The notes under the pieces are model-generated. The model was given only the letters and a program-made list of their open reading frames with translations, was not told the origin of the DNA and did no database searches. From Candidatus Komeilibacteria bacterium (GTDB taxonomy: Bacteria > Patescibacteriota > Patescibacteriia > UBA1558): a stretch of DNA of 64,000 bases. The number at the start of each line of letters is the position of its first letter. The first letter of the stretch is position 1. The DNA lies in the NCBI GenBank assembly GCA_048538235.1, contig JBLYPX010000001.1, positions 72,013 to 136,012 of the forward strand, in the 5' to 3' direction. The position numbers and the translations under genes were made by a program. This document shows positions 19,882 to 60,252 of this stretch, piece after piece.

Positions 19882-19969
19882 GGAGAGGTCGCATAGTGGT
19901 CTAGTGCGCCTGCTTGGAGTGCAGGTATACCGCAAGGTATCGCGGGTTCAAATCCCGCCCTCTCCGCCA
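19882..19969 (+). tRNA. tRNA-Ser (anticodon GGA)
   Basis: GGAGAGGTCGC...CCTGC-TTGGAGT-GCAGG, a long variable arm, then GGGTTCAAATCCCGCCCTCTCCGCCA. It has the class II long arm and an encoded CCA. Confidence 0.85.
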
Positions 19970-20076
19970 CATCGTGCTAGCACGAGGATATTAAAAAACA
20001 GCTTATTTATTAAGGTGTTTTTTATTGCAAAATAACCAAAATTAGGATAAGGTTTAGAGGTGTAAGACATATTTTT

Positions 20077-21156
20077 ATGAATTATTATAATTACATTTTT
20101 ACAATAGCAATTTTCGTTTTATATACCTTTATATTTTCTATTTTTATAATTCCACCCTTAAAGGATTTAAGGAGAATTAGAACCAAACTAAGAGGGTTAG
20201 TAAAGCCAAAGTCACTATTTAAGAGCGAGGATAGTAATAATAGGGAAAATCAAATTAAAGAAATAACGGATAGTTTGAAAGATTATAAATTAAGATATCA
20301 AGAAATAGAACAATCGACCTGGTTTCTTATTGCTGGGATAATCATAACTGTCTTAACAGCACTAGCTTTGTTTTTGTGGACCATCTCTAATCATCAGAAA
20401 ATTTTAAAGTATATCTTTGTTGATCATATAGATTATTTAATTTTAATGATTTATGTGATAATAATGTCTACTCTAATGGTTTGGGCATTTAAAATGAACA
20501 CCCCATCATCTAAGAAAATAACTAGGTGGGAATATTTAAGCAAAAACTATGGCTTGAGTCCATCGGGATTAGCAGAATGCGCCAATTTTCGTGCAGACTT
20601 TAATCCCAAAACGATATCAACGTTCGAAAGTGGTGACTCAAGAGGATTAAGACAGATTCAAATTTTTTCAGATATTGAATTAAGGGGTTATAAGTACTGG
20701 TTCTTCATATATAGTTTAGATGATCAGCGTCATATCTTCAATTTGACGGGGGCTGTTAACGATAAAACATCTTTGAAAGAACGGTTTTTTGATATAGAAG
20801 ACATACATGGTTGGTCTGTTAATATTGCAAGCTTTGATTTTGACAAATATAAAAATAAAGAATTATATTTATTTCTATTTATTTTCGACCCAATTCTTTA
20901 TGGTGATGTGGGAGCCCCTTATTGGGGCTATAAAAAATTTACCTACGAAGGAGAGGTAATATCTTCCAGCGAATATAATGTTCCCGCAAACAGTACACAT
21001 AAGAACATAAAATATTTTGGTAGTGGTTTAAAGTTTAAAAAATATACATGGCAAGACTCCGAGCAGTCCACTGAAGTTGATGAAATAGTTAAAAAAGTAT
21101 TTAATAATACATATATAGAGGTGACTAGTAGGCTGAAAAACGTTTCTATTAAATAA
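20077..21156 (+). CDS. Hypothetical membrane protein
   Basis: A 359-aa protein with an N-terminal TM helix and two more TM helices at about 75-135, plus a soluble C-terminal domain. No recognisable motifs. Confidence 0.45.
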   Translation: MNYYNYIFTIAIFVLYTFIFSIFIIPPLKDLRRIRTKLRGLVKPKSLFKSEDSNNRENQIKEITDSLKDYKLRYQEIEQSTWFLIAGIIITVLTALALFLWTISNHQKILKYIFVDHIDYLILMIYVIIMSTLMVWAFKMNTPSSKKITRWEYLSKNYGLSPSGLAECANFRADFNPKTISTFESGDSRGLRQIQIFSDIELRGYKYWFFIYSLDDQRHIFNLTGAVNDKTSLKERFFDIEDIHGWSVNIASFDFDKYKNKELYLFLFIFDPILYGDVGAPYWGYKKFTYEGEVISSSEYNVPANSTHKNIKYFGSGLKFKKYTWQDSEQSTEVDEIVKKVFNNTYIEVTSRLKNVSIK

Positions 21157-21220
21157 TTTTACACCTTTTCACACCATTATTAATATTGTTTACTAATAGG
21201 ATGTATTTTATACTATAGGT

Positions 21221-21652
21221 ATGGGATTTTATCAAAATACAAGATGCTCAAAATGTGGTTATAGTCTTTCTGGTGGCTACAACAGGGTTGGTGTTGATAG
21301 TAATTTAGGATTACCATTTTTAAAATGTCCAAATTGTAAAACTGTATGCAAGACGGGTAGGAATATTTATTCTTTAATGACAGATGAGGAGAGAGTAACC
21401 TATAAATTTGGTAGGATTAAACAAACGCTAATCAATGCATTTGGTATCGCGATTGGATTGATGGGTTTAAGCATAATAACTGGCGTCGTTGATGAGGATA
21501 AAATGGAACCATATCCCCACCTTGTAATTATCGGGGTTTTGGGTATTTTATTAAGTGCACTCATATCATATGCTAATGATAAGAGTTGTATTGATAACCT
21601 TGAAAAGGCGTATAGGAATAAGGACAAAAATTATTACGCCGATATAGATTAA
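21221..21652 (+). CDS. Zinc-ribbon membrane protein
   Basis: N-terminal C-x2-C...C-x2-C (CSKCGY...CPNCKTVC) followed by two TM helices. Confidence 0.45.
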   Translation: MGFYQNTRCSKCGYSLSGGYNRVGVDSNLGLPFLKCPNCKTVCKTGRNIYSLMTDEERVTYKFGRIKQTLINAFGIAIGLMGLSIITGVVDEDKMEPYPHLVIIGVLGILLSALISYANDKSCIDNLEKAYRNKDKNYYADID

Positions 21653-21683
21653 AAATATTTATGATCTAATCTGGTTTTAAAAA

Positions 21684-21710
21684 AACAACTTCATTTCGAA
21701 GCTGTTTTTT
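21684..21710 (+). terminator. Terminator-like hairpin
   Basis: AACAACTTC-ATTTC-GAAGCTGTT followed by T7. Confidence 0.4.
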
Positions 21711-21757
21711 TACTCTTTTATTCAGTTAATAGAGTTGCTACTGATTTTATATAAAAA

Positions 21758-21955
21758 TTATCTACCAAATTCCTTAAAGCATAATTCTGACTTAGTCCCG
21801 TACAAGCTATTGTCGTTGCCATATAATGACCACATAGAATCTAAACATGAATCCAGTTTATTCTCTCGTCTAACTTCTACTAAATAATATGATATACCGA
21901 CAATCATTCCCGCCAAAACTATACTAATTGAAATTGTTAAAATTTTCTTATTCAT
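21758..21955 (-). CDS. Small single-TM protein
   Basis: A 65-aa protein with an N-terminal hydrophobic helix. Confidence 0.3.
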   Translation of the reverse strand: MNKKILTISISIVLAGMIVGISYYLVEVRRENKLDSCLDSMWSLYGNDNSLYGTKSELCFKEFGR

Positions 21956-21972
21956 ATTTATATTAACATTAC

Positions 21973-22647
21973 TTAATAAATCCCGTTTGGAAATTCATTC
22001 TTAGAGTCCCATTCACCCCAAGAACCTAAATCTTTAAGTTCGCTACCGTTATTATGATCAATAATATAATAATTATCATAAGAGCCACCATCTGGATCGT
22101 CGTAATATTTATGTTTCAACGTTATGAGATTTCCTTTATATTCGCCATTTTTAACAATGTCTAGATAATTCCCGTCAGATATAAAATTAATTTTCCCCGA
22201 ATCAATGTTAACGGAAAATATAGCATTTGATGTGGTCCAAGATTGTGTTAGAAAGTATACATTTTTATCATCTAAAGAAAAAATGGGATTCATTATATTG
22301 ATAATCTCATGACCTTCATCATCTGCTTGTCCAGATTTAACTAATATAGTTTCCTGACCTGTTTCAATATTTCTCAACACAAGATCATTAAGTTTACCAC
22401 CCCAACCATCACCCGTTTGATAATTTGAGTCTACGGATCCATAATCACGTAATGCCAGTTCCAATACACCATCTTTAGAAGTCGTTTTATAGTCATCAAC
22501 TATTTTCTTCTCACTACTATCCAAAATGTTTTCGTCCACCACCTCAGTATCAATATCATTTTGATTTTTATCTACAAGAAAAAACATTGTCGCTATAATA
22601 ATAACGCCCACAACAAGTAAAGCTTTTTTGTATTCTTTATAACTCAT
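21973..22647 (-). CDS. Hypothetical membrane-anchored protein
   Basis: A 224-aa protein with an N-terminal TM anchor and a D/G/Y-rich extracytoplasmic domain. Confidence 0.45.
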   Translation of the reverse strand: MSYKEYKKALLVVGVIIIATMFFLVDKNQNDIDTEVVDENILDSSEKKIVDDYKTTSKDGVLELALRDYGSVDSNYQTGDGWGGKLNDLVLRNIETGQETILVKSGQADDEGHEIINIMNPIFSLDDKNVYFLTQSWTTSNAIFSVNIDSGKINFISDGNYLDIVKNGEYKGNLITLKHKYYDDPDGGSYDNYYIIDHNNGSELKDLGSWGEWDSKNEFPNGIY

Positions 22648-23041
22648 TTATTATATCCGTGAGTTGATTAGGGTTCTTAACTAAGTCTATATTAATCAAT
22701 TTGTTTTCACAATTACGTTCTTTCAACGCAGCGTGTTCCAATCTATATACATCATCATCTAACCACCTAAAATCTTTTGAAAAATCTATGCCCTCTGTCT
22801 TCCAAGTGCCCCAAGTAGTTGGTTTTATTAGTCTTGCGTATTCCATTGCTTCGACTGAAATCCTATCTCTCAAATATTCTAATAAATGCTCTGTATCACC
22901 CTTGCAATGAGTAGTTAGCCAATAAACATCATGGTTGTTTGTAATATACTTTAGAAATTCAACCAGCCCATCAGCTGGTTGTTGATACTTATCTAAGGCA
23001 TCATGAATCAAAACGCCGTCTATGTCTAAGTAAATGTTCAT
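22637..23041 (-). CDS. HAD-superfamily-like small hydrolase
   Basis: HAD motif I DIDGVL at residues 6-11. At 134 aa it resembles the small HAD-like proteins common in phage and defence islands. Confidence 0.45.
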   Translation of the reverse strand: MNIYLDIDGVLIHDALDKYQQPADGLVEFLKYITNNHDVYWLTTHCKGDTEHLLEYLRDRISVEAMEYARLIKPTTWGTWKTEGIDFSKDFRWLDDDVYRLEHAALKERNCENKLINIDLVKNPNQLTDIINEL

Positions 23042-23050
23042 TTTATAATT

Positions 23051-23338
23051 TTATTTTTTGCCTTGTCTTTTTTTTGCTCTTTCTGTGTGATTAATATCTT
23101 CGACTAGGGCAATCTTTGCTCTTTTCATTAGTTCTTTAATTGCTCTTGGAATATCATCCATATAATTAAATACCTCCGAATCTGATGAAATCTTCTTTGT
23201 TTTATTAGCCTCAATAATAGCAACCCCACTAGACCAGCAAGGGGTTTGTTTGTGATCTTTGCCAACACGTCCAGGTAGCTCATTTGTCCAGAACCTGAGT
23301 TTAATGGCGAGTGTTTTGTTATCCTCTTTTTTTGTCAT
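23051..23338 (-). CDS. Hypothetical basic protein
   Basis: A 95-aa protein that immediately precedes the methyltransferase gene on the same strand. Confidence 0.35.
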   Translation of the reverse strand: MTKKEDNKTLAIKLRFWTNELPGRVGKDHKQTPCWSSGVAIIEANKTKKISSDSEVFNYMDDIPRAIKELMKRAKIALVEDINHTERAKKRQGKK

Positions 23339-23356
23339 AAATAAAATTGTTAATAA

Positions 23357-26920: not shown

Positions 26921-26924
26921 AATT

Positions 26925-30278: not shown

Positions 30279-30407
30279 AGTGTTAAAATTAACTTAAAAT
30301 CCCTTTAATTATCCCTTTTTTTAGCCAAAAAGTCAAAGGAATCGGTCAAATAAGATAATACTTATTCACAACACAAAACACAATCATTAAAAACCCCTTT
30401 AGTTGCA

Positions 30408-31535: not shown

Positions 31536-31547
31536 GAAGTCAATCAT

Positions 31548-32876: not shown

Positions 32877-33047
32877 TTTTTAGACCTTGCTAAGAACTTA
32901 ACTGTCGATAACGTGTTGGCAACTAACCTTAACAAAAGCCTAGATTAGCTATATGATTTATGGACTTATATAGATAAAATCTGTATAATTTAGTTAACAA
33001 TTAGATTGACCTAACCCTCGTAATCTCTATGAGGTATGGTCATAAAT

Positions 33048-33093
33048 CCTCAACTATAGAAATGGTCTTCCGACCAGTATTTCGTAGTTGAGG
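33048..33093. promoter_or_regulatory. 46-bp imperfect dyad (CCTCAACTA ... TAGTTGAGG, with an inner GAAATGGTC/GACCAGTATTTC symmetry) next to the recombinase gene; candidate recombination (att) site
   Basis: The outer arms are perfect 9-bp inverted repeats. The inner arms are near-symmetric around a central TTCC. The size and partial symmetry are typical of large-serine-recombinase att sites. A second GC-rich hairpin (TGATAGC-ACCGCAAGGG-GCTATCA) follows at 33115-33138. Confidence 0.35.
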
Positions 33094-33199
33094 TCTACAT
33101 TCGAAAGGGTGTAGTGATAGCACCGCAAGGGGCTATCAGCTGGTTCGGGGGACCTTTTTTATTTCCTGTGCTAGCCGTAAGATTATTAATTATAAATAT

Positions 33200-34363
33200 A
33201 TGGGATCAACAATTTGTCCATTCTGTAAAGAGGAAATCAAAGAGGATGCAGTCGTTTGTAAACACTGTAATCAAGACCTTTCCAATTTTAGAAAACAAGA
33301 AGTAAATCAGGTAGAAGCTGAAAACAATCTTAAAAAAGAAAAGAACAAAAAGGCTTTGAAAATAGTAGGTATAGTTTTGCTGGTAGCAGTATGTATTAGG
33401 CTTTGGTTTATTTCTATTCCAATTATCGGAATGTGGTATGTGTGGAGTAAAACAAAATGGAATAAAAAACAAAAATATATAGCCTTGGGAGCACTTTGTG
33501 TTCTGGCTATTATTCTTATTAGTATGAATAGTTATATCTCTCAACCACCAACAATTACTATTTTAGAACCAACGAACAATTTTACTACTGATGCCGATAG
33601 TGTAACTATTAAGGGCTTTGTTAAGCCTATTGATGTAGAGTTATTGTTTAATAATCAACCGATTGTAATTCAATCTGACGGTAGTTTCAGCAAAGACATA
33701 GCTTTGGGTAACGAGGTGAATACCGTTTCGTTTAAAGCTACAGATAACGATAAAGTTACAGAACAAACATTAACAATAAATCGTACTTTTACGGAAGAAC
33801 AAAAAGCTGAATTAGAAAAAACAAGAAAAGAAGCAGCCGAGAAAGCTAAGACTGATCAAATTACTAAAGATAAAGAACAGTTACAACGTGAATTGGATTC
33901 TTTCAATACTCCATTTGATAGCTCTGCCTACAGGGGCAGTGCTGATGCTTTAACTATGGAGGCGGTAATATTTAATGTGTGGGCTCAACTGATTAATGAA
34001 TATAAAGAGAGTTCTGACTTGGAATTAAAATCTATGGCTAATCAGCTTGAACAGAAGGTTTCACAACTACAGGTCAAAGAATTTCCCTTAATGAGAAAAA
34101 ACTATGCCGATATGCTTGCCGAAAAATTATGGGAGGAAAATTTAGAAGTTGTAATCAAAGGAAGTAGTAATGATACGCTAGAATTGATCTCTGGAGTTTT
34201 TGCAAGTAACAAAAACATAGCTGATATACAATCAACCATTGAAAGCATGTTAGAATTATTGCGTTTTAGTAGAGTTAATTATAAATGGTATAAGTATGAT
34301 TCAGACTACACCCATTATACTATTGACAGTGAATATGATAGTGAGGTGGTTTTTACAAACTAA
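33200..34363 (+). CDS. Zinc-ribbon membrane protein with an extracytoplasmic domain and a coiled-coil region
   Basis: CPFCKEE...CKHCNQ zinc ribbon at the N-terminus and two TM helices. The C-terminal region is coiled-coil prone (EEQKAELEKTRKEAAEKAK). Confidence 0.45.
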   Translation: MGSTICPFCKEEIKEDAVVCKHCNQDLSNFRKQEVNQVEAENNLKKEKNKKALKIVGIVLLVAVCIRLWFISIPIIGMWYVWSKTKWNKKQKYIALGALCVLAIILISMNSYISQPPTITILEPTNNFTTDADSVTIKGFVKPIDVELLFNNQPIVIQSDGSFSKDIALGNEVNTVSFKATDNDKVTEQTLTINRTFTEEQKAELEKTRKEAAEKAKTDQITKDKEQLQRELDSFNTPFDSSAYRGSADALTMEAVIFNVWAQLINEYKESSDLELKSMANQLEQKVSQLQVKEFPLMRKNYADMLAEKLWEENLEVVIKGSSNDTLELISGVFASNKNIADIQSTIESMLELLRFSRVNYKWYKYDSDYTHYTIDSEYDSEVVFTN

Positions 34364-35856
34364 AAGAAAAATACTCTTGGAACGCAGGGTCTGTGTTCAG
34401 ATACACTGAGGACAAGATTGGAAAAAGCGTCGGCTAAATCATCATGTTTTTCTACTCCGAAGTGAATGATTTGCTGTATAAGTTGTTCAGCTCCATGTCT
34501 GGGAAACAATATTTGCCCTGTTTTAATCAGATTAGCAGTTAAGACCAATCTACTACGTTTATCTTGAAGACCAGGTCTAGTTGTCATAACATTAACTATT
34601 CCTTCACTTTTTAATTGTTGAGGTAGTGCTTTTTGATAAGCCACATCTTCAATAATAAATGTAGGGTGCGTGCCTTTACCTTTATAACTTTCATCTAACA
34701 ATTTGCAGACATCTACAGTCTCGGGAAAATTCATCCGTTTATTTATTATTTTAGGTAAGATATATATCTTATAGTCGGTTTTAGTTTCATATAAAAGTCC
34801 CGGAACCATAGCAGTATAATCTGCTATATTGCTTTTAGAAATGGCCGGGTCAATGCCAATCCTTACCTCGGTGTGAGAAGTGAAGATGTCATCAAATTTC
34901 ATTGGTGGTGGTATCTCGTCATAGTAATGAATCCATTCTGGAAATATAGCTTGATCTTCATCTGGAACAATATTAAGTAAGTACTCACGTTGCCAAGCAA
35001 TATCATTACCTATCTTTTTTCTCTCATTATCTAAGTCTTGTGTAGTTGGATATTTGCCAGGCCACAAACACTTTCCTTTATTATCAACTAAAGGGAAAAA
35101 TAGAAATTTGCCATCAATCCATTGTTTATCTATTTCGTCCTTTAATCTCATTAAAAGTGAATCTTCGTGAAGTAGGTTACCAACCACAATTAACCTCGTG
35201 TTAATATCTCCAGCTGGTAAGACCTCTCCTTTTAGCCATTGGTGTGTTTTGTTTCTACTTTCACGCGTCTTAGTTGATGCCATATTCTCAACATCATCGC
35301 ATATGATTAAATCTGGCCTATGTTCATGATGTCTAAGCCCGCGGATACTTTGTTCTGCAGATGCTACAGTAATTCTTGCACCTGTATTGGAAAAGACAAG
35401 CGATTGAGAACCCCATTCATCTTTATCTTCTTGAAAAGGGCCGAGGTCTTTTTTAAGTAAGTCATTATCTTCTAATTCGTTTCGTAAATTCATCATGTGC
35501 TGTTTTGCTTGAGCTTGTGTTTGGCAAAAAACAATAACAAATTTCTTTTGCTGTTTTCCCAGTATTGCCCAAATTGGATAGGCTGTAGTAACCATTGTAG
35601 ATTTACCAGAGCCTCTGAAGGCAACAATAAATAAATTGCTTTTATCGTCTGATTCAACCAAGTGAATTATTTCCTTTTGGAAATCAGCTGTTGCATATTT
35701 AACATAATGAGCATAGTAAAAGTGGAAAAAGTAGGAAAAGCTTTCTTTGGTTATTGCTGTTCTTACTTTTTTATCTTTTGTCATTTGATCTACAAGATCT
35801 TGTGGTATTATTTTATTTATCATCTTTTTTATCGGGTAATGGTAAAATTTGTGCAA
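34360..35856 (-). CDS. Phage terminase large subunit (PBSX/Terminase_6-like)
   Basis: Walker A AFRGSGKST, Walker B LIICDDVEN, and a C-terminal RNase-H-like nuclease with IGIDPA and DDLADAF acidic motifs. It overlaps the upstream TerS-like gene by 44 nt. Confidence 0.7.
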   Translation of the reverse strand: MHKFYHYPIKKMINKIIPQDLVDQMTKDKKVRTAITKESFSYFFHFYYAHYVKYATADFQKEIIHLVESDDKSNLFIVAFRGSGKSTMVTTAYPIWAILGKQQKKFVIVFCQTQAQAKQHMMNLRNELEDNDLLKKDLGPFQEDKDEWGSQSLVFSNTGARITVASAEQSIRGLRHHEHRPDLIICDDVENMASTKTRESRNKTHQWLKGEVLPAGDINTRLIVVGNLLHEDSLLMRLKDEIDKQWIDGKFLFFPLVDNKGKCLWPGKYPTTQDLDNERKKIGNDIAWQREYLLNIVPDEDQAIFPEWIHYYDEIPPPMKFDDIFTSHTEVRIGIDPAISKSNIADYTAMVPGLLYETKTDYKIYILPKIINKRMNFPETVDVCKLLDESYKGKGTHPTFIIEDVAYQKALPQQLKSEGIVNVMTTRPGLQDKRSRLVLTANLIKTGQILFPRHGAEQLIQQIIHFGVEKHDDLADAFSNLVLSVSEHRPCVPRVFFF

Positions 35857-36217
35857 GTTTTAAGGCTTTTTGCACTATTTCAGCCTGAGCGGAGGTAAGC
35901 TCACCTGAATCCTCAATTTTAGATGTAACCTCCATTTTGTCTTTAAATTTAGGATTCCTATGATTAAGCCAAAATCTTATAGCAGAAAAGTTCTTTTCTT
36001 TTATAAGCGTAAGTAATTGGCTTTCTGACATATCATTAACAAGAGCTTCTCCTTCGGCGATTGCTTCATCCACAGCTTTGGAAAACTTTTTATCTTCTCT
36101 CTTCCACCTATAAATACTATTTCTAGATATACCTGTTTTTTCGCAAGCAACTTGTACTATGGGAACTTTTTTAAGTTCTGCTAAAAATATATTTTTAACT
36201 CTATTTTTCTTAGACAT
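35813..36217 (-). CDS. Terminase small subunit-like HTH protein
   Basis: A 134-aa protein with an N-terminal HTH (VACEKTGISRNSIYRWK). Its position immediately upstream of and overlapping TerL is typical of TerS. Confidence 0.5.
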   Translation of the reverse strand: MSKKNRVKNIFLAELKKVPIVQVACEKTGISRNSIYRWKREDKKFSKAVDEAIAEGEALVNDMSESQLLTLIKEKNFSAIRFWLNHRNPKFKDKMEVTSKIEDSGELTSAQAEIVQKALKLAQILPLPDKKDDK

Positions 36218-37487
36218 CGTGTTTAACCACCGCCTTTCTGCCAGTTAATTTTTCATATCTTCTGATAATCAAATCACAAAATATGGGTTCTAGCTCCATG
36301 GCATAAACCTTTCTTTTTAATTGTTCACCAGCGATTATAGTACTACCTGAACCAGCAAAAGAATCCAAAATTATATCTCCTGGTTTTGTACACCTACGAA
36401 TTGCCTTTTCGTGAAGTTTAGGAGGTTTACTCGTCGCATGCTCATAGCTTTGACCTGATAATCTTTTTACAAACCAAGTATCAAGGTTGTCAAAGGCTTC
36501 ATCAAGTAGACTATTACCAGTAGTCATCTCCTTATTCAGTACTTCATTAAGATTTTGAATTTGTGGTGCTATGTATGGCTTTCCAATTGTTCCATACACA
36601 TTTGGTTCATAACACTTATTAAAAGCTATTTTAGGGGTAGGGCTTTGAGAATTCTTCAACCACAGACAAACACGCTTGTTAACTATATTAAGTTCCCTAT
36701 ATAGTTCTTGAAATAAACCAATGAAACTTTGGTCACACCAATAGAACACGTGACAATCTGACTTAATTGTTAATAGGGCAGTAGTTAGACTATCTCTTAT
36801 AAAGTTTTTGTACTCTTCATAAGTACGATTGTCCTTTACGTTCCCACCGTAGTCGTTTTTGCCACCTATGCCCTTAGAATAGTTTAAATTTATATTATAA
36901 GGGGGGTCAGAATAGATCATTGAGGCTTTTTTGTTTCCAAATAATCTCTTGATGTTCTTAAGGTCGGTACAACTACCACACAGTAATCTATGTGGTCCTA
37001 AATAAATTAAGTCACCCAGTTTAGTTTTAGGTTTCTTGATTTTCTTAAGTTCTTCTTCAACACTAAAATCCTCATCTTTAATCTCAAGCTCCTCGTCCCA
37101 TATTTTAGATAAATCAACATCGTCAAATCCAATGTCTGTCAAAAGATCTAATTCAAACGACTTGAGCTTAGCAAAATCCCAATCACCACCTAGAGCATTA
37201 CTAGCAATAAGGTAGCGTTCAGATTCTTGTTTGGTAAGTTTTCTGTTAGGAATTCTTACGTCTATAAGCTCATTACCTCGACCAAGTAATTGCAAAGCCT
37301 TGATCCTTTGATGGCCTGCTAGTATTTTGCCATTTGAATCAATGGCTGGGATTTCCACTAAATTGAACTTTTTTAAGTTCTTTTTTAAGTCCGACATTTG
37401 CTTATCGGAAATAGTACGAGGATTAATGTCTTGTGGAATAAGATCGTTAACTCGTTTTTGCACTGTGTGCCATTTCAGTTTTTCCAT
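36210..37487 (-). CDS. ParB-like nuclease domain fused to an N6/N4 DNA methyltransferase (phage-type)
   Basis: An N-terminal ParB/Srx-like region, then methyltransferase motif IV SDPPY (MIYSDPPYNINLNY) preceding motif I DSFAGSGSTIIAGEQL (beta-class order). This gene arrangement is common beside phage terminase genes. Confidence 0.75.
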   Translation of the reverse strand: MEKLKWHTVQKRVNDLIPQDINPRTISDKQMSDLKKNLKKFNLVEIPAIDSNGKILAGHQRIKALQLLGRGNELIDVRIPNRKLTKQESERYLIASNALGGDWDFAKLKSFELDLLTDIGFDDVDLSKIWDEELEIKDEDFSVEEELKKIKKPKTKLGDLIYLGPHRLLCGSCTDLKNIKRLFGNKKASMIYSDPPYNINLNYSKGIGGKNDYGGNVKDNRTYEEYKNFIRDSLTTALLTIKSDCHVFYWCDQSFIGLFQELYRELNIVNKRVCLWLKNSQSPTPKIAFNKCYEPNVYGTIGKPYIAPQIQNLNEVLNKEMTTGNSLLDEAFDNLDTWFVKRLSGQSYEHATSKPPKLHEKAIRRCTKPGDIILDSFAGSGSTIIAGEQLKRKVYAMELEPIFCDLIIRRYEKLTGRKAVVKHDV

Positions 37488-37532
37488 TTCGATTGCATTT
37501 ACTTATTAAATGGATGTACGGAAAAACAAAAA

Positions 37533-37600
37533 ATGCCTATTCCGCACACAAAATAGATAAGACTAAGTCTTTGTTCTATTTCTTGCGCGGAATAGGCATG
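37533..37600. repeat. 68-bp imperfect inverted repeat with a nested palindrome
   Basis: Arms ATGCCTATTCCGCACACAAAATAGA and TCTATTTCTTGCGCGGAATAGGCAT match 22 of 25 positions. The loop contains AGACT-A-AGTCT. It lies between the stop of the 129-aa gene and the start of the ParB-methyltransferase gene. Confidence 0.5.
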
Positions 37601-37666
37601 TTTCCTAAAAAAGATACACTATTCTTCTTTTTACTACGCTTATATTTAGCTGTTAAAGGTATTGTA

Positions 37667-38056
37667 TCATATTTTCGACCCTTTGGCAATCCCCCTGACT
37701 ATTCTTTTACCTTTTTTACTGCTAATAAACTGCTTAGTATCTTCGCTTGGGTATATAGGAATTTCTTTTGGTACTTGTATAAAGACACGTTTTCCTTGTT
37801 TTTCATATTCTGCAATCATTGATTTTAAATCAGGATCATTCTTTATTAATTCTAAAAATGATTCATTTTTACCCAATTCTTCTATATTTCTATAAATTCT
37901 ACCAGGTTCTTTATTATCTATATATTTTTTAATAGTTTTAGAAGTAGAGCTTTGTCTTTTATAGGCTGTATGTAATTTAATATCCGTAATTGATAAAACA
38001 ATATCATTTTTATTCGGACCCTTTTTAGGTTTTTTTATCCTTAATTCGTATTCCAT
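37667..38056 (-). CDS. Hypothetical basic protein
   Basis: A 129-aa K-rich protein heading the ParB-methyltransferase/TerS/TerL gene string. Confidence 0.35.
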   Translation of the reverse strand: MEYELRIKKPKKGPNKNDIVLSITDIKLHTAYKRQSSTSKTIKKYIDNKEPGRIYRNIEELGKNESFLELIKNDPDLKSMIAEYEKQGKRVFIQVPKEIPIYPSEDTKQFISSKKGKRIVRGIAKGSKI

Positions 38057-38096
38057 AGCTTGATTTTCCCATTTTTTAGAGGTAAAGTAAAGTCAT

Positions 38097-38771
38097 ATGG
38101 AATTATCTGATAAAACAATTAAAGAATTTAAGAATATCTACAAAAAAGAATATAATAAGGATATTTCTGATAAAGACGCTCGTGAAAGTGCTCATAATTT
38201 AGTTCATTTCGTAGAACTTTTACGCGATCAGGCAATTTTAGACTATAAACGCACAGAAAAGTTAAAAGAAAATCCTAAAGGATTTCATTTAGAGGGTATT
38301 GGATATACTTGTTTTATTTGTAGGGATTCTATTTCAAATGAAGAAACTTGGTATGACAAATGGGGTATAAAATGTTTAACTTGCCAAAAAGCTATCGATA
38401 AAAAGATTATTCCTGCATCTGTGGCTAAAAATGAAAATAGTTGGTATTCAAAATATGATTTAGAGAGTAGATTTAATATAGATAGACATGCGATGAACAA
38501 ACTCATTAAGGCAGAGATATTAATTCCTCGTATAGTACCAAATCACCTAGGAGGAGCCCACGTTCATTTATTTTTGATTAAAGATAATGAAGATATATTG
38601 CCACCAAAAGAATTGACTCAATCACAGCTAGTGAAGGAAGTGGGAGAAGACGGTAAAGAATGGTTTCACTCTGAACCATGGTATAAGTTTGTAGACCCTT
38701 TTAAACATTTGGAGGGTTATAAGATAATGAATTATTTAAGACTTAAAGAATATGATAAAACAAAAAAATGA
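38097..38771 (+). CDS. Zinc-finger protein (C-x2-C-x17-C-x2-C)
   Basis: CFICRDS...CLTCQKA. It is the first gene of a three-gene overlapping operon. Confidence 0.4.
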   Translation: MELSDKTIKEFKNIYKKEYNKDISDKDARESAHNLVHFVELLRDQAILDYKRTEKLKENPKGFHLEGIGYTCFICRDSISNEETWYDKWGIKCLTCQKAIDKKIIPASVAKNENSWYSKYDLESRFNIDRHAMNKLIKAEILIPRIVPNHLGGAHVHLFLIKDNEDILPPKELTQSQLVKEVGEDGKEWFHSEPWYKFVDPFKHLEGYKIMNYLRLKEYDKTKK

Positions 38772-39378
38772 AAAATTAGTCGATGAAAATAATATATCAG
38801 TTATTGCAGAATCTCCCTATTTGATAAAATCAAATAAAGAAAAGTGTAAAAAAATTATAGGTAAAGAACCTGATGTCAGTCCAAATTCTCGGGCAGATTT
38901 TCTTATAAGTTTGCATTTAGTTCTGGAATTGAGCTTGAATGCTTTGTTGCGTGAAATTATAGTTAATAACCTGCAGAAAAAAATTGACAAATCCAAAATT
39001 GTAAATAATTTAGATAAAATATCTTTTATAGAAAAAATCACATTGTTTGTATATATGGAAAAATATAAGTTTGATTATGATGAAATTGAAAAAGCTGATG
39101 AGTATCACAGTATAATTGGAAAAATGAAAGAATTTTCTAAAACTAGAAATTTATTGATGCATGGTAGCATGATCGGATCTTTCCTTGATGATCATTCAAG
39201 TCCGACAACAGCTACAAGCGTACTTACACCTGAGCACATGAATGAACAAATAGAAAATTTTAAATATATACTCGAGGGAGTAAAGTTTTATTTGAATCAT
39301 TTGAAAAATTGTACTTTCAATAAAAAAGAGTTAATAGATAAATTTTTAAATACTGATTTTTTGTCTAAACAAATATGA
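38752..39378 (+). CDS. Helical protein with an Rx4H motif (possible HEPN-like)
   Basis: KTRNLLMHGS gives R-x4-H in a predicted helical context. It overlaps both neighbours (20 nt and 4 nt). Confidence 0.3.
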   Translation: MIKQKNEKLVDENNISVIAESPYLIKSNKEKCKKIIGKEPDVSPNSRADFLISLHLVLELSLNALLREIIVNNLQKKIDKSKIVNNLDKISFIEKITLFVYMEKYKFDYDEIEKADEYHSIIGKMKEFSKTRNLLMHGSMIGSFLDDHSSPTTATSVLTPEHMNEQIENFKYILEGVKFYLNHLKNCTFNKKELIDKFLNTDFLSKQI

Positions 39379-39950
39379 CCGCGACAATGAATAAGGAAGA
39401 ATTTGATTTTAAAAAACAAGGAGTAGCAATAGTAACTATTTCCAGTTGTCTAGATATATTGAATTTAATAGTTGAAGGTTCTTTCAGGAAGGGTACGCCT
39501 TATTTTTTGGAAAGTTTATTCGTGCGACTTAGGCATCTGTCATACTTTTTTTCTAGCAAAAAGTCACCTTTGATCAAATATAGAGATAAGTTTAGCCAGC
39601 AAGAATTGGATATTATAGACAAAATTATTAATGCGCGTGGGGCTGCCGCTCACCCAGAATCAGAATCTCATTGGTTGAATGGTTATATAATGATTAGTGG
39701 AGCAATGAATTTTAACAATGGGGATGTTGGTGTTCAATATGGTTCCAATATTATTTTTTTAAAAAAAGAGATTATTCCTGTGTATAAGAAATTTAGAGAG
39801 ATTTTTTCTCAAGCACCAGAACTATCTGACTCTATAAATCGTCTTAGTTGGGAAATGGATGATAAAAAGTTTGAAAAGTTGGAAAAAGAAATTACTGATT
39901 TATTAAAAGAACCAACTAAACTTTTTAAGGATAGACTGGATTACACGTAG
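39375..39950 (+). CDS. Helical protein with an Rx4H motif (possible HEPN-like)
   Basis: INARGAAAHPES gives R-x4-H. It is translationally coupled to the preceding gene by an ATGA overlap. Confidence 0.3.
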   Translation: MTATMNKEEFDFKKQGVAIVTISSCLDILNLIVEGSFRKGTPYFLESLFVRLRHLSYFFSSKKSPLIKYRDKFSQQELDIIDKIINARGAAAHPESESHWLNGYIMISGAMNFNNGDVGVQYGSNIIFLKKEIIPVYKKFREIFSQAPELSDSINRLSWEMDDKKFEKLEKEITDLLKEPTKLFKDRLDYT

Positions 39951-40213
39951 TTGTAACATTAATAATCTATTTGTGTCACTTTTGTCACTTTTATAGTGCA
40001 CGAGGATCTTATTTATCAAAGTTATAAAATATAGTAAAATAACCTTACTGGGCTTGAAAAACCAACGGTTCCAGCACGAAGTAGCCCGCCAGTTTGTATT
40101 GATTGATTATAGCTAAACATTCAATTAATGGGTGTTTTTTTGTTTGTGCTAGCTTGATTTTATAGGCTCTGAGGTGTATTTTATATTCGTATTAAAAGAA
40201 ATTAATTTTTAAA

Positions 40214-43200
40214 ATGATCGAAGTAAAGATAGTAGATACAAATAATAGCTTATTAAATGAGGACCAGTCTGAGGTTGTTGGAAAGATTGAAAGTCCAGCT
40301 CAGCAAAAATTATATAAACAATTAAAAAAATATAATAATGAAGTCGCCAACACTTATAGGGGGGCTTTAATTGTTTTAATGTCTAAAGATAATCCTGATC
40401 GTTTTAAACAATCTGCTCATTCGTTGAGGCTATTAAGTGGATTAATAGTGAGAGATATAATTGTTGAGGATAAGAGTGACAATAGAGCTGTCACAGATAT
40501 TGTTTTGGACTGGCTTAATAGTTACTCAAAAAACAATCCGCCAACATATGAAGAAATTGATTCGTTTAAGAAAAAGTTAGAAATTTTTACATTAAATCAT
40601 ATTAAAAAAATGATATTAATGATAAGGAAAGACGATCCTATGGGTGGTCCACCAGAACACGTAATTAGACAAATAACTAGAGAGTGGAATGATCTACATA
40701 ATTTTTTTAATAGAGTCGCTAAAACTGGAAATACAACAGAATCAGATTTTAAAAACCATCTTTCTGAGATGGAATTGATTTTATTTAACATCACAAGTAG
40801 TTATTATGATAATAGAGACCAAATAGAAAAAGTATTAAATAAAAAGCCATCAGTTAGACTCGCAAAAGAATTATCTAAAATGATAGTCTCTTATAGGAGT
40901 TATGAGTATTTGTTTGAACGTGCTTCATCAGACTGGTTGACGCCGTTAAGAGGTGTTGGCTTTTTTGTCTTGCCAGAGCAAAGCTTAAGAATATGGCCCC
41001 CTTCTAAATATCTATTAAGAATAATTGCTGAAAAGCCTGAGGAAATTGTTGGTATAGTTAATTCTTTCTCCGACACTTCAAATCCAGCCATTATTGATGA
41101 TATTATCAACATGGCTTTAAACGTAGATATCAAATATACGCTAGAAATAATTAAAATAATTTTTCAGAAGAAATGGGTTATAAATGGTTTTTTTGGAGAT
41201 AATTATTGGTCTGGACATAATGTATATAAATTAATAGATTATCTAGTAAAAAACAATAAGGCTGATGCTGCTTTAAAATTATTTCAAAATTTTTTATCTT
41301 TTGATAAGGAAACAGAAGGAGTTGGTCTAAGATCTGCCAAACCTCACATAAGGGTTCATGACTATAGGGACTTGTTGGATAAGCATATAGATAGTCTAGT
41401 AGAGATTAAACCAACAGAAACGATTGAGGTTATTGCAAAATTTTTAAACGCAACATACTTAAAAATCTATACGGATGCAGGAGGTAAAAGGGTTTATTCG
41501 AGAAAAGAAGACTATTCTTATTTAGATTATAAGGACATTGAAGAAGGTATGTACCATTTGGATAGCGCTACTATCATTTTGTTAAGATCTCTAATTAATT
41601 TACTTGAAAATGTCGCCACAAATAATCACGGTATAATATTTGACTGTATGGATAAATTAAATTATCCACTTTATATTTTTAGAATGATTAAGTTAAGGAT
41701 GTATAATAAATTTCCATCTTTATTTAAAGGAGAAATCAAAAGTAGTTTGTTAAAATCAGAAAACTATGAGGATATTAATGATATCGGTGAAGTCTTTTCA
41801 GAATTAGTTGTTAATAATTTTAAATTATTAAATAACGCTGAAAAAGAAAAAGTATTTAAAATCACTGAGAAGTGCCCAAAGTATATTTTAGAATTACGAG
41901 ATATAACCCAAGAACAAATAGACGAATTTTTTGAGCGGTGGAGATATAAAAATTTATATTTAGTGAAGGCCTTTTTAAATGGAGACAGCAAAGTGTGGTT
42001 TGATTCTGTAAAAGATAAATATTCTCCTCCAGACTTTACGAAAGGTTTATCAACTACATGGGTTGGACCGACTAGTGATATTACTGTAACAGATTTTAAC
42101 AGTATGGATCCAGACGTAATAATAAGGGAGCTTGATGAATGGATTCCGCCAAAAGGATCAATGGTAGACACGCCGGAGGGTAGAGGTCGTAATTTGAGTG
42201 AATCGATTAAATTTAACCCCAATAAATATTTTCCCCTTGCGTTAGAGTTTATTAAAAAAAAGCTTCGCTTTACATACATTCATCATTTATTTTGGGGTTT
42301 TGAATTAGCACACAGAGAAAAACATCCAATGGATTGGGATAAAATTATTGACGCCGGAATTAACTTGGTTAGGCTAGATAAGGATAATATAGATAAGTTT
42401 CCTAAAACAAGTAATGATGATTTTGAATATGATCACGATGGTGCAGTGAGGTCGTTATTGAGTTTAATCGATCAGGGGTTGGGTCAAAAGGAAATAGATA
42501 TGCCTGTGAGTAGAAGGGGTGATATATGGGAAATAATAAAAAAAGGTACTAAAAGCACTTACCCTGATTTGGAACATGAAAAAGAGTATGGAGGCAACAA
42601 CATGGATCCGTTTACTATGTCTATCAACACAACTAGGGGCGAGGCCATGCACGCCTTAATAAGATATGCTTCTTGGATTGTTCAGCAATCTAAAGAAAAA
42701 AGAGGTTTACCAAAAGAGGTTCTTCAAGTATTAAATTATCATTTGGATTATAAAAATGATCCAACAGAAACTATTCATTGTATTTATGGAAGATATCTAC
42801 CATTTCTTTCGCACCACGAGCCTGAGTGGGTTAAAAAAAATATGAAGCTAATATTTCCAGACGAAAAGGAAAAGTTTTTGGTTTGGAAAGCGACTTTTGG
42901 GACTTATTTAAGAGGTAATATGTATATTGATCTTTTCTCAGAACTTTTTGGGCAATATAGTAAAGCTATAGAATATGTTTCAACAATTGAAGATGAGAAA
43001 AATGAACATGATCATTTTGTAGAAGCGCTTGCGAACCATATAGCTTTAGCACTGGTTTACAACGCAGAAAATGCGACAAGTATTGCAGAAAAATTATTTA
43101 AAGCCAAAAACGATAGATTAAAAAAGCATATTGTATTTTATATAGGCGCTAATATATTGAAGCCAGATTTGAGAAATATGAGGGATAAAAAATACGCAGA

Positions 43201-43612
43201 TCCAGAAAAAGTAAAATGGATTTGGGAAAAAATAATTAATGAGTTATCACCAGATGTGGCTGAAGGTTTTGGTTATTGGTTTATTAATAGCCCGTTTGAT
43301 AAGAGATTTACTATCGATCAGCTTGTAGAAACATTAAGAATTACTAGGGGGCAATTAGATGGTGAATATCAAATTCATAATAAATTAAATGATTACGTGG
43401 ATGATTATCCAACAGAGGTTTTTGAATGTATAGAATTAATAATTAGGGGAGACCCTCATAAGGGACGTTTGTTTTATCGTATTACTGAATATGTGGGGTT
43501 GATGCGAAAAATTAAAGATAGAGCTGATAAAGAATTGATTATAAAAATGAGCAAATTAGCAGATTATCTTGGAAAGAATGGTTTCGAGAATGAATTTGAA
43601 GAGTTTAAATAG
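40214..43612 (+). CDS. Orphan large protein (1132 aa), no recognisable catalytic motifs
   Basis: A long uninterrupted ORF. It is predicted to be mostly alpha-helical and has no Walker or nuclease motifs. A tandem TGTCACTTTT direct repeat lies upstream at 39974-39993. Confidence 0.55.
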   Translation: MIEVKIVDTNNSLLNEDQSEVVGKIESPAQQKLYKQLKKYNNEVANTYRGALIVLMSKDNPDRFKQSAHSLRLLSGLIVRDIIVEDKSDNRAVTDIVLDWLNSYSKNNPPTYEEIDSFKKKLEIFTLNHIKKMILMIRKDDPMGGPPEHVIRQITREWNDLHNFFNRVAKTGNTTESDFKNHLSEMELILFNITSSYYDNRDQIEKVLNKKPSVRLAKELSKMIVSYRSYEYLFERASSDWLTPLRGVGFFVLPEQSLRIWPPSKYLLRIIAEKPEEIVGIVNSFSDTSNPAIIDDIINMALNVDIKYTLEIIKIIFQKKWVINGFFGDNYWSGHNVYKLIDYLVKNNKADAALKLFQNFLSFDKETEGVGLRSAKPHIRVHDYRDLLDKHIDSLVEIKPTETIEVIAKFLNATYLKIYTDAGGKRVYSRKEDYSYLDYKDIEEGMYHLDSATIILLRSLINLLENVATNNHGIIFDCMDKLNYPLYIFRMIKLRMYNKFPSLFKGEIKSSLLKSENYEDINDIGEVFSELVVNNFKLLNNAEKEKVFKITEKCPKYILELRDITQEQIDEFFERWRYKNLYLVKAFLNGDSKVWFDSVKDKYSPPDFTKGLSTTWVGPTSDITVTDFNSMDPDVIIRELDEWIPPKGSMVDTPEGRGRNLSESIKFNPNKYFPLALEFIKKKLRFTYIHHLFWGFELAHREKHPMDWDKIIDAGINLVRLDKDNIDKFPKTSNDDFEYDHDGAVRSLLSLIDQGLGQKEIDMPVSRRGDIWEIIKKGTKSTYPDLEHEKEYGGNNMDPFTMSINTTRGEAMHALIRYASWIVQQSKEKRGLPKEVLQVLNYHLDYKNDPTETIHCIYGRYLPFLSHHEPEWVKKNMKLIFPDEKEKFLVWKATFGTYLRGNMYIDLFSELFGQYSKAIEYVSTIEDEKNEHDHFVEALANHIALALVYNAENATSIAEKLFKAKNDRLKKHIVFYIGANILKPDLRNMRDKKYADPEKVKWIWEKIINELSPDVAEGFGYWFINSPFDKRFTIDQLVETLRITRGQLDGEYQIHNKLNDYVDDYPTEVFECIELIIRGDPHKGRLFYRITEYVGLMRKIKDRADKELIIKMSKLADYLGKNGFENEFEEFK

Positions 43613-43815
43613 TTGCTGCATGTTACTGTGTTAATTAATTTTTATAATTGTAATTGTAGTATAAACATTATGAGATTTGTGTATGGAAAGACAAGAGTTA
43701 TTTATAATTTTTTTCGGCTTACTGACGCTAAACTTATTTATGATGAATCTAGTTAAGTAGCCCAACAGGCTATTTTTTGTTAAAATAATATAGTATTAAA
43801 TAACAATTATTACAT

Positions 43816-44199
43816 ATGAAAACTATTTTAGTAGACGCAATACATGCGTTCGTGATAAAAGGAGAGGGAATTTTTGAGGATATGCACAAGCTCTTAGAAG
43901 AATATCCAAATAAAAAAATAATCTTAACAAATGCTGACGATGAAGAGATGCTTAAGTTTGGATTAGATCAAATGCCTTATGAGGTTTTTACATTAAAGCA
44001 TAATCCAGACAAAACAGATAAAGAATACTATAATAAAATGCTTAGTTTATTAAATTTAGACGTTAATGATGTTATATATTTTGAGCATAGTGCTGAAGCT
44101 GTTGAAAATGCTAAGTCTGTTGGAATTAAAACCTTTTATTATGATAGTGAAACTAAAGATTTAGTTTCATTAAAAAAGTTTATTGACGATAATTTATAA
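43816..44199 (+). CDS. Small HAD-like fold protein
   Basis: A 127-aa protein with weak similarity to the HAD phosphatase C-terminal part (ILTNADDEE...IYFEHSAEAVENAKSVGIKT). Confidence 0.35.
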   Translation: MKTILVDAIHAFVIKGEGIFEDMHKLLEEYPNKKIILTNADDEEMLKFGLDQMPYEVFTLKHNPDKTDKEYYNKMLSLLNLDVNDVIYFEHSAEAVENAKSVGIKTFYYDSETKDLVSLKKFIDDNL

Positions 44200-44228
44200 T
44201 ATTTATATATTTAATTGATTCAGTGCTA

Positions 44229-50774: not shown

Positions 50775-50776
50775 TT

Positions 50777-51262
50777 ATGCAGAAGTTTATTGTTCCACAA
50801 TTTATTGACGTTGAAAGTAAAATATTTGGACCAATTACAACCAGACAGTTTTTAATAATGTTAGTTGGTTTAATGTTTGGTTTTGTAGCATATAAATTAT
50901 CTGACATATCATTATTCGCAGTAGAGGCAGCTATTATTGCGGTTGTAACTATAGCCTTTGCCTTTGTTAAAGTTAATTCAGCCCCTTTTCATGTTTTTCT
51001 TTTAAACTATATTAAAACAATGAAGTCAGCTAAGATTAGAATTTGGAAAAGACAACCATATATTCAACAAACAAAGAAACAGGAAGAGGAAAATATTAAT
51101 AATAATGAGCCAGTGGTAAACAAGAGACAGGTTAGTGCTTCAAGATTATCTGAGCTGTCATTAATAATAGACACGGGTGGAGCATACCAAGGAGAAGATC
51201 CATTACAAAATACATTAGATACACAACCAATAAATATAGATAAAGAATTAGGAGAAAATTAA
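50777..51262 (+). CDS. Small two-TM protein (PrgI/VirB3-like position)
   Basis: A 161-aa protein with two adjacent TM helices. It lies directly upstream of VirB4, as in Gram-positive T4SS operons. Confidence 0.4.
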   Translation: MQKFIVPQFIDVESKIFGPITTRQFLIMLVGLMFGFVAYKLSDISLFAVEAAIIAVVTIAFAFVKVNSAPFHVFLLNYIKTMKSAKIRIWKRQPYIQQTKKQEEENINNNEPVVNKRQVSASRLSELSLIIDTGGAYQGEDPLQNTLDTQPINIDKELGEN

Positions 51263-53801: not shown

Positions 53802-53818
53802 TTATTAATTTTGTATAT

Positions 53819-60162: not shown

Positions 60163-60252
60163 TGGCGGAGAGAGTGGGATTCGAACCCACGGGACCCGTG
60201 AAGGCCCAACAGTTTTCAAGACTGTCGCATTCGACCACTCTGCCATCTCTCC
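60163..60252 (-). tRNA. tRNA-Ser (anticodon TGA)
   Basis: Reverse complement GGAGAGATGGCAGAGTGG...ACAGT-CTTGAAA-ACTGT, a long variable arm, then GGGTTCGAATCCCACTCTCTCCGCCA. Confidence 0.85.

Follow-up and report, generated by a model that had tools for sequence, protein, structure and literature searches.

A 24-kb insertion at a tRNA-Ser gene of a Komeilibacteria genome

The window analyzed here, a stretch of 64,000 nucleotides, comes from a Candidatus Komeilibacteria bin, and the large terminase subunit (TerL) and ComFC proteins encoded in it are identical to NCBI records on an 860-kb contig. Core genes lie on both flanks, as the preliminary description of this DNA, made from the sequence alone, had stated: pyruvate kinase, phosphoenolpyruvate (PEP) synthase and a Por-secretion-tail protein are encoded upstream, and ComFC and ClpC downstream. 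Between them, directly at the 3' end of a tRNA-Ser(GGA) gene, lies a block of accessory DNA, the larger part of which (19970-40091; 20,122 bp) is a discrete and probably satellite-like mobile element that is the subject of this report. Its conserved core comprises a 129-aa protein, a ParB-like domain fused to a DNA methyltransferase, the small terminase subunit (TerS), TerL and a large serine recombinase (Table 1).

Related genomes were reached via homologs of ComFC; a scan of a genome collection with the PEP synthase recovered no close relative, the top match being 69% identical. One of the loci thus reached, L181 (GCA_041294325.1), shares the gene order of the window on either flank, with the pyruvate kinase being 87%, the PEP synthase 72-81%, ClpC approximately 89% and ComFC 70% identical in protein sequence. 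In this locus no nucleotide separates the 3' end of tRNA-Ser(GGA) from the comFC stop codon, and no match to window positions 19975-44228 was found anywhere in it. Given that in the window the comFC stop codon starts at 44229, the insertion spans 19970-44228. In a still closer relative, L184 (ComFC 85% identical, tRNA differing at 1 nt), only two unrelated small genes separate the tRNA from comFC. The site is hence polymorphic among relatives and the 24-kb block is a true insertion: the accessory insertion at tRNA-Ser surmised in the preliminary description is borne out by an actual empty site (tRNA-Ser followed by comFC and clpC), and relatives differ in occupancy rather than sharing the same genes at this place without indels. 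Its view of the block as one island of about 24 kb stands with regard to the borders but not with regard to unity, because the element proper ends at 40091. GC content was tried as a marker and rejected, as the island is not distinguishable by it.

Table 1. Target tRNA, element and adjacent cargo in window coordinates
Feature	Position	Strand	Matches and remarks
tRNA-Ser(GGA)	19882-19969	+	ARAGORN; Rfam tRNA, 57 bits
tRNA-side element end, CATCGTGCTAGCACGAGGAT	19970-19989	+	near-perfect 18-bp palindrome containing GCACGAGG
Terminator-like hairpin	19993-20023	+	inverted repeat (I4 arm); equivalent after the palindrome in all related loci
Right-arm orphans	20077-23338		359 aa (+), 143 aa (+, zinc-finger-like), 224 aa (-), 134 aa (-), 95 aa (-)
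Eco57I/MmeI-type (type IIG-like) N6-adenine methyltransferase, 1187 aa	23357-26920	-	
PLD(HKD)-SNF2 helicase, 1117 aa	26925-30278	-	partner of the methyltransferase
Orphan, 375 aa	30408-31535	+	convergent with the recombinase gene; no Pfam, PHROG, PADLOC or NCBIfam match
Large serine recombinase, 442 aa	31548-32876	-	Pfam, PHROG and PDB matches
LOOT RNA (RF03000)	33008-33137	+	69.9 bits (gathering cut-off 46.4); model positions 1-121
Membrane-anchored protein, 387 aa	33200-34363	+	zinc ribbon and Ig-like domain; cargo downstream of LOOT
TerL	34360-35856	-	phrog_38, E 9e-79, residues 27-482
TerS	35813-36217	-	several PHROG small-terminase families; Pfam HTH_Tnp_1_2
ParB-like domain fused to N6/N4 DNA methyltransferase	36210-37487	-	phrog_498, E 5e-82
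Long terminator-like hairpin	37529-37603	-	between the 129-aa gene and the methyltransferase; inverted repeat I7
Conserved core protein, 129 aa	37667-38056	-	family directly upstream of the methyltransferase in 33 loci
Left-arm cargo	38097-39950	+	224 aa, 208 aa, 191 aa
Distal end segment (seg150)	39939-40091	+	conserved, ~150 nt; in ~30 loci
Invariant GTGTCACTTTTGTCACTTTT in seg150	39973-39992	+	
GCACGAGG in seg150	39998-40005	+	
GCCCGCCA in seg150	40084-40091	+	end of the pseudo-tRNA 3' half
Dsr1-like protein, 1132 aa	40214-43612	+	outside the element, inside the insertion; PADLOC Dsr1, E 2e-31
HAD/NIF-like protein, 127 aa	43816-44199	+	weak matches; last gene of the insertion

Ends of the element and their relationship to the target tRNA

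A generic search for attachment (att) repeats between 19 and 48 kb returned chance-level matches only. The att core repeats that the preliminary description suggested searching for did not emerge in this form. A comparison of the window DNA with other loci, however, revealed two stretches of non-coding sequence, short but conserved and distant from the core genes, which mark the ends and include a core matching the tRNA. At the tRNA side, the match covers tRNA-Ser and the 20-70 nt that follow; the 15-mer CGTGCTAGCACGAGG is found once each in nine other loci, always right after the 3' end of a tRNA-Ser (isoacceptors GGA, GCT, TGA and CGA), with the junction reading ...CTCTCCGCAACAT and then CGTGCTAGCACGAGG, followed by the terminator hairpin. 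Near-identical variants of the palindrome follow the tRNA 3' end in L107, L119 and L096. Since the palindrome is missing after the tRNA in L181 and L184, this sequence belongs to the inserted DNA.

The opposite end is formed by seg150. Approximately 30 loci possess this segment, which has a constant orientation, always terminates the divergent left arm and is separated from the 129-aa gene by 0-7 kb. Listed from the inside outwards, it contains a dyad (TTACA-N6-TGTAA), the double box GTGTCACTTTTGTCACTTT, which is invariant, a motif of the GCACGAGG type and, outermost, a pseudo-tRNA 3' half that resembles the T-arm and the acceptor 3' strand of a tRNA and terminates in GCCCGC(C/A)A. Beyond this terminus the loci have nothing in common. 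The GCACGAGG motif itself occurs exactly twice in the window, at both element ends and on the same strand, against 0.17 copies expected. The box GTGTCACTTTTGTCAC is a candidate binding site for TerS or the ParB domain. Two other readings of seg150 were discarded, namely that it is a structured RNA, for which RNAalifold gave no consensus structure, and that its right half is a host gene beside tRNA-Ser, as this part is missing in L181 and L184.

A tRNA scan of 60 loci showed that the nearest tRNA past the recombinase always has its 3' end toward the element, which is also the orientation of tRNA-Ser(GGA) in the window. This tRNA is the integration target here; besides the window, tRNA-Ser is targeted in 13 loci, with the other targets being the tRNAs for Gln, Glu, Asp and Trp. 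The terminal 6-10 nt of the distal segment co-vary with the tRNA 3' end at the opposite end of the element: a tRNA ending in ..CTCCGC is paired with a segment ending in ..GCCCGC for Ser, CCCCAACCA with GCCCAACAA (L081) and GCAGCCA with CCAGCA (L140, L152) for Gln, and AAGGTCACA with TAGGCTCACA for Glu (L087), whereas in the Trp case (L129) GTGGGCCCGC and 40 further nt are the same at both ends. Additionally, a subterminal motif of about 15 nt is present near both ends and differs between lineages of the element. At the level of sequence this pattern is the signature of site-specific integration via a short core common to the element and the tRNA 3' end, and the predicted attP would be ...GTAGCCCGC(C/A)A joined to ACATCGTGCTAGCACGAGG. 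The 12 elements for which both ends could be delineated span 14.9-20.1 kb.

The likely agent of this integration is the large serine recombinase, the identification of which in the preliminary description holds up in profile searches: the Pfam Resolvase, Recombinase and Zn_ribbon_recom models all score over their cut-offs, phrog_95 is matched with E 7e-65, and the catalytic motif YARKS (YxRxS) aligns with that of SPbeta SprA, its best solved relative. The protein accordingly has the catalytic domain with its serine, the Recombinase domain and the zinc ribbon that define large serine recombinases. Recombinases at least 70% identical to that of the window use one common att sequence and more distant ones use other tRNAs, i.e. 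recombinase divergence follows the change of target tRNA. Because the att sequence and target tRNA vary with recombinase similarity in this way, we infer that the serine recombinase is the integrase. The sequence right after the recombinase stop codon was also considered as an att site and rejected, as it diverges immediately even between loci with identical recombinase 3' ends.

A terminase module without genes for the virion shell

The calls of TerS, TerL and the ParB-methyltransferase in the preliminary description were all upheld by PHROG profiles, and for the methyltransferase and TerS by Pfam as well. TerL, which in the public annotation starts at 35823 (487 aa), retains intact Walker A (FRGSGKST) and Walker B (DLIICDDVE) motifs that align with those of T7 gp19. 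Its Pfam terminase matches taken alone are slightly under the cut-off and its nuclease domain matches Terminase_6C weakly; overall it appears to have the N-terminal ATPase and C-terminal RNaseH-like nuclease domains that characterize large terminases. The ParB-methyltransferase additionally matches phrog_620 (ParB-like; E 2e-21) and Pfam N6_N4_Mtase. With TerS, and TerL with intact ATPase motifs, the element is predicted to encode functions that steer its own DNA into capsids. The 129-aa core protein has 12 database homologs and zero domains, and its AlphaFold model was poor (predicted local distance difference test, pLDDT, 63; predicted template modeling score, pTM, 0.38) and too weak for a fold search.

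Portal, capsid and tail proteins had not been recognizable in the preliminary description, and profile searches confirm this, with zero matches among the island proteins in Pfam, PHROGs and NCBIfam. Likewise, clustering of all proteins across the loci yielded no conserved family of portal or capsid size, and Pfam annotation detected no structural genes in five neighborhoods (10 kb to either side in annotated loci) or in the 64-kb window. The 1132-aa protein, which had been singled out as a potential hidden capsid or portal, turned out in profile searches to be a Dsr1-like defense protein situated outside the element end. As a control, we considered the three TerLs of 39-41% identity (L215-L217), which belong to ordinary phage genomes, the nearest true phages, and are encoded directly 5' of portal, protease and major head protein genes; the same PHROG search that was applied to the island recovers their portals as phrog_2662 with E 1e-96 to 1e-119. 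Every TerL at least 43% identical to that of the window sits in the shell-less architecture. As the control finds portal, protease and head proteins in these phages, the lack of shell genes is a real and conserved feature of the element.

The element family across the candidate phyla radiation

The window TerL has 4267 database matches at E<=1e-10. The best 120 cluster representatives of these are 65-82% identical to it, and the named ones among them are all from the candidate phyla radiation (CPR), namely Komeilibacteria, Paceibacteria, Gracilibacteria, Taylorbacteria and Giovannonibacteria; many of these 120 are encoded on contigs of 0.1-0.9 Mb. GenBank phage TerLs are only 24-30% identical to it. 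For comparative analysis 100 loci were fetched around TerL relatives, 97 of which contain a TerL, together with 33 from a viral collection. Across the loci the TerLs of the family show 43-83% identity, and the order methyltransferase-TerS-TerL-(cargo)-recombinase recurs in 97 loci, with the methyltransferase present in 94 of the 97, TerS in 87 and a recombinase downstream of TerL on the same strand in 62. Among the 35 loci without a recombinase, 32 end at a contig end, and only 3 with a full 10 kb downstream lack it. In about 30 loci TerL is directly followed by the recombinase after a gap of about 125 bp; in the others there is either one intervening gene on the opposite strand, as in the window, or a stretch of cargo 3-8 kb long. 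In 31 loci the 129-aa gene has a divergent neighbor that encodes a LexA/CI-type S24 repressor. Far from being unusual for a reduced CPR-like genome, as the preliminary description had supposed, the family is common in CPR genomes, and in all cases observed the element resides in the chromosome.

Comparison of the window with L096 illustrates the mobility of these elements: TerL, TerS and recombinase are respectively 81%, 80% and 74% identical, whereas the host proteins ClpC and ComFC are only 51% and 43% identical. Element genes are thus far more alike between distant hosts than host genes, which shows horizontal mobility. Some contigs were also observed to have the methyltransferase-TerS-TerL module in duplicate, or to have an additional, more distant serine recombinase immediately next to the conserved end segment (the IMG/VR contigs behind L198 and L200, L203 and L205, and L213; also L140, L146, L154 and L178). 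This suggests tandem or multiple occupancy and a hotspot common to several recombinase-bearing elements.

Cargo genes and the LOOT RNA

Variable genes occupy three slots, namely the left arm, the gap between TerL and the recombinase, and the gap from the recombinase to the tRNA. In the family as a whole the cargo is mostly defense genes or diversity-generating retroelements. The former include type I restriction systems in about 14 loci, as well as ThsB-TIR, SduA, caspase-like, GIY-YIG and DUF5655 proteins. The retroelements, found in about 11 loci, combine a reverse transcriptase (PF00078), bAvd (PF22296) and a candidate target protein of about 300 aa; the cassette lies between TerL and the recombinase, in loci including L087, L089, L099, L113, L160, L164-L166 and L176. 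Such cargo may account for part of the known abundance of these retroelements in CPR genomes.

In the window, the gap between the recombinase and the tRNA carries the defense operon of the preliminary description, which Pfam and PADLOC substantiate as a two-gene defense-like operon. The type IIG-like methyltransferase matches Pfam Eco57I (E 3e-30) and PADLOC REase_MTase_IIG (E 4e-49); its partner contains the Pfam PLDc_2, SNF2-rel_dom and Helicase_C domains and matches PADLOC DrmD, an 'HKD+Snf2' candidate and phrog_26785 (E 8e-91). Homologous pairs are cargo in L095 and L195. Identity of this pair with DISARM or BREX was rejected, with scores of 155 bits for DrmD (curated cut-off 610) and 48 for PglX (curated cut-off 900), and the operon has none of the DISARM/BREX partner genes (DrmA/B/C, BrxA/B/C/L, PglZ). 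The right-arm orphans have no significant Pfam, PHROG, PADLOC or NCBIfam match and no homologs in the other loci; PDB and NCBIfam searches of the orphans were likewise without matches. The 387-aa protein encoded between TerL and the recombinase combines Pfam Glucodextran_B with a Zn-ribbon and a TcaA-like N-terminus, and has homologs in L099, L141, L167 and L190.

None of the left-arm proteins has a profile match in Pfam, PHROG or NCBIfam. The 224-aa protein has a CxxC...CxxC pattern and recurs in at least 8 loci. The 208-aa and 191-aa proteins (38752-39950, plus strand) each contain one Rx4H motif (RNLLMH and RGAAAH, respectively) typical of HEPN ribonucleases and, by this motif only, are tentatively HEPN-like; the equivalent arm of L081 encodes a Hypoth_Ymh (HEPN-like) protein.

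The 4.1 kb beyond the element end (40092-44228), with the Dsr1-like and HAD-like genes, have no recognizable ends of their own and are separate cargo at the same hotspot. The Dsr1 match covers profile positions 424-1101 only, i.e. the C-terminal two thirds without the SIR2 part, and the N-terminal SIR2 effector domain that defines Dsr1 is not recognizable; the protein has no match in Pfam (including SIR2), PHROG, NCBIfam or PDB. Its residues 1-292 match nothing and may constitute an effector domain of a new kind. L092 carries a relative with 24% identity as cargo.

The slot beside the recombinase is preceded by an RNA hitherto without a genomic context. Using a covariance model built from six copies, we detected LOOT in about 38 of the 97 loci (among them L081, L083, L101, L131, L146, L150, L158 and L171, with about 30 others). 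In nearly all cases the cargo gene closest to the recombinase, whichever gene this is, starts 50-85 nt downstream of the RNA, and 130-165 bp separate LOOT from the start of the recombinase gene, which is divergent. LOOT is thus the leader of a cargo slot and a regular component of these elements. No function for it was found in the literature (searched with incomplete coverage), which lists it only as a metagenome-derived RNA. A further conserved feature is the long hairpin downstream of the 129-aa gene, which in an alignment of 64 loci displays compensatory stem changes and a U-run, and is preceded by the conserved sequence GCGTAGTAAAAAGTAGAATAG...; it may be a regulated terminator or an antitermination site before the late genes.

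Several features of the flanks deserve mention in their own right. Between the PEP synthase and tRNA-Ser lies a gene (18399-19676, minus strand) for a 425-aa protein whose C-terminal sorting domain is of the Por secretion type. L181 lacks this gene at the corresponding position and has, beside ClpC, a 1389-aa protein with a homologous C-terminal Por_Secre_tail region, a difference that represents a second indel or rearrangement at the locus. Further tRNAs, namely Ser(TGA), Ser(GCT) and Arg(GCG), cluster at 60163-60346 and 61034-61108. The same Ser(GCT)-Arg(GCG) neighborhood adjoins elements in L119 and L142; in the window the cluster is unoccupied, with no GCACGAGG motif there, and hence offers potential extra landing sites. 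Finally, homology to annotated genes of L181 and L183 identifies genes for TraC-like, PrgI-like and DUF87/TraG-like ATPase proteins at about 50300-55200, a conserved cluster of secretion or DNA-transfer type beside a UPF0020/N6_N4 methyltransferase gene (48399-49616).

A probably satellite-like element with its own packaging motor

We consider it probable, if by no means assured, that the 20.1-kb site-specific integrative element at 19970-40091 is of the phage-satellite kind, with a terminase of its own and packaging into capsids of a helper phage; dependence on such a helper is the inferred part of this proposal. The serine recombinase would integrate and excise the element at tRNA 3' ends, and the repressor, where present, would hold it silent. 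After induction, the TerS-TerL complex would recognize a site on the element and pack its 15-20 kb of DNA into procapsids supplied by a co-resident or infecting helper phage, with the cargo shielding the host, and hence the element, from other phages. A number of observations weigh against this proposal. No helper phage was identified and no evidence was obtained of element DNA in virions; the fetched contigs and the viral collection yielded neither an attP junction nor an excised circle, with a palindrome search of the latter giving four unrelated GC-rich chance matches only, and none of the fetched contigs had terminal overlaps. The element has no recognizable replication gene and no recognizable excisionase or directionality factor. 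In the window copy a LexA/CI-type repressor was not recognized, though 31 relatives have one; the 224-aa CxxC protein fills its position next to the 129-aa gene. Moreover, the recombinase sits mid-element in this copy, 11.5 kb from the tRNA end, and large serine recombinases do not usually have an att layout of direct subterminal repeats combined with a tRNA target. Lastly, to our knowledge no satellite family has both TerS and TerL but no capsid genes, and the mechanism is proposed by analogy.

Different accounts of the same gene complement have to be weighed against this. The preliminary description had offered a satellite-like element or a decayed prophage, and it is the former that fits the comparative data. 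Under decay, a complete temperate phage would have lost its structural, lysis and replication genes with the terminase left over, which would explain the prophage-like layout (repressor, terminase module, integrase and morons) and the relationship of this TerL clade to the TerLs of true phages at 39-41% identity. Yet the genes are intact and conserved and stop at the same place after TerL in some 100 loci distributed over many CPR lineages, where the TerLs are 43-83% identical, the ends are conserved and defined, the size range (14.9-20.1 kb) is narrow and no pseudogene remnants of structural genes were seen. As independent decay would not yield one conserved architecture, we regard such an origin as extremely improbable. 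An integrative defense island that moves only rarely is unlikely too, albeit a more serious contender: here TerS, TerL and the ParB-methyltransferase would act against an infecting phage by disrupting its packaging, through competition for its procapsids or cleavage of its DNA. Known satellites such as the Staphylococcus aureus pathogenicity islands (SaPIs) and the phage-inducible chromosomal island-like elements (PLEs) do interfere with helper packaging. The absence of virion evidence and a cargo dominated by defense (restriction-modification of types I and IIG-like, ThsB-TIR, SduA, HEPN-like and Dsr1-like proteins) agree with this account. However, the excess similarity of element genes over host genes between distant hosts, the five different tRNA targets and the presence-absence differences between close relatives together imply frequent horizontal transfer, which needs a vehicle, and a complete conserved terminase in an element of narrow size range fits self-packaging.

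The strong conservation of the terminase genes, the occurrence of two modules on some contigs and the chromosomal location wherever the element was seen could also point to a host-domesticated packaging module, i.e. a gene transfer agent or lateral-transduction engine with capsid genes elsewhere, which mobilizes the neighboring chromosome by packaging in situ. We judge this very unlikely: the closest relatives of the window organism are without the element, the use of different tRNAs, element-specific att sequences and a recombinase is the behavior of a selfish mobile element, and structural genes are absent from the 64-kb window and from the 10 kb to either side in annotated loci. A terminase that works independently of capsids, moving DNA into vesicles or a cell-to-cell channel, would account for the missing shell genes and helper, and CPR bacteria are attached to host cells and have pilus and secretion genes, as exemplified by the TraC-, PrgI- and TraG-like genes at 50-55 kb of the window. 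Nevertheless, we know of no terminase that works without a portal-bearing procapsid, and this TerL has the fold of an ordinary T4/T7-type family member, while its close relatives in phages adjoin portals, which leaves this account with the slightest of chances. More broadly, there is a small chance, decidedly below that of the satellite-like reading preferred here, of a CPR-wide mobile DNA with a complete packaging motor and no shell, which directs its serine recombinase to different tRNA 3' ends through changes in the short pseudo-tRNA core of its own end segment and, in radical form, has no conventional helper capsid at all. In that form it might entail capsid-free transfer, or a standing 'packaging engine' that moves defense cargo and neighboring chromosome between ultra-small symbionts.

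Significance and comparison with known systems

The CPR make up a large share of bacterial diversity. Their genomes are tiny and mostly devoid of CRISPR, and very little is known of the phages and mobile elements of these bacteria. If the satellite-like reading is correct, one conserved type of element would be a main route for the acquisition and exchange of immunity among them; no element of the satellite type would have been reported from the CPR before, and the combination of TerS and TerL without capsid genes would be unprecedented. The orphan LOOT RNA gains a genomic home, and the natural series of serine recombinases, in which the target shifts along with a core that is short and readable, holds practical interest for genome engineering. 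A literature search of incomplete coverage found no description of the family, and an earlier description elsewhere is possible; apparently, therefore, the family is undescribed, whereas satellite-like integrative elements as a kind are already known.

In being integrative and without virion genes the element conforms to satellites in general. It resembles the phage-inducible chromosomal islands (PICIs), including the SaPIs, in being an integrated element of 10-20 kb that lacks virion genes, has its own TerS, a presumed integrase acting at a fixed site and accessory or defense cargo, and in most relatives apparently has a repressor-controlled divergent layout. In contrast, PICIs have a tyrosine integrase, a primase or replicase with an origin, and only TerS (or Rpp), borrowing the TerL of the helper, whereas the present element has a large serine recombinase, both TerS and TerL, the ParB-methyltransferase and tRNA 3' ends as targets. 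Thus, the tyrosine integrase at one end that typifies PICIs is absent, the sole recombinase being of the large serine type and internal in the window copy, and no primase or replicase domain or origin was found in the window element or among the conserved families. The capsid-forming PICIs (cf-PICIs) do encode both TerS and TerL, but they also encode capsid, portal, protease and head-tail connectors, none of which are present here, and steal only tails.

The P4-like satellites are comparable as integrative hotspots that exchange anti-phage systems between conserved genes; unlike the element described here they have a tyrosine integrase, a primase, and capsid-size and transactivation genes, and, lacking a terminase, use the cos packaging of the helper. 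The closest parallels to its recombinase come from SPbeta (SprA) and the skin element (SpoIVCA), which belong to the same recombinase family and have a prophage-derived layout in common with it, but these are prophages, either complete or decayed in idiosyncratic ways, and they are inserted within protein-coding genes rather than forming a conserved capsid-less family at tRNA genes. Finally, the phage-inducible chromosomal minimalist islands (PICMIs) and the tycheposons are small cargo islands, inserted at tRNA genes or other specific sites, that depend on other elements for their transfer; they differ from the present family in their recombinase and core genes and have no TerL.

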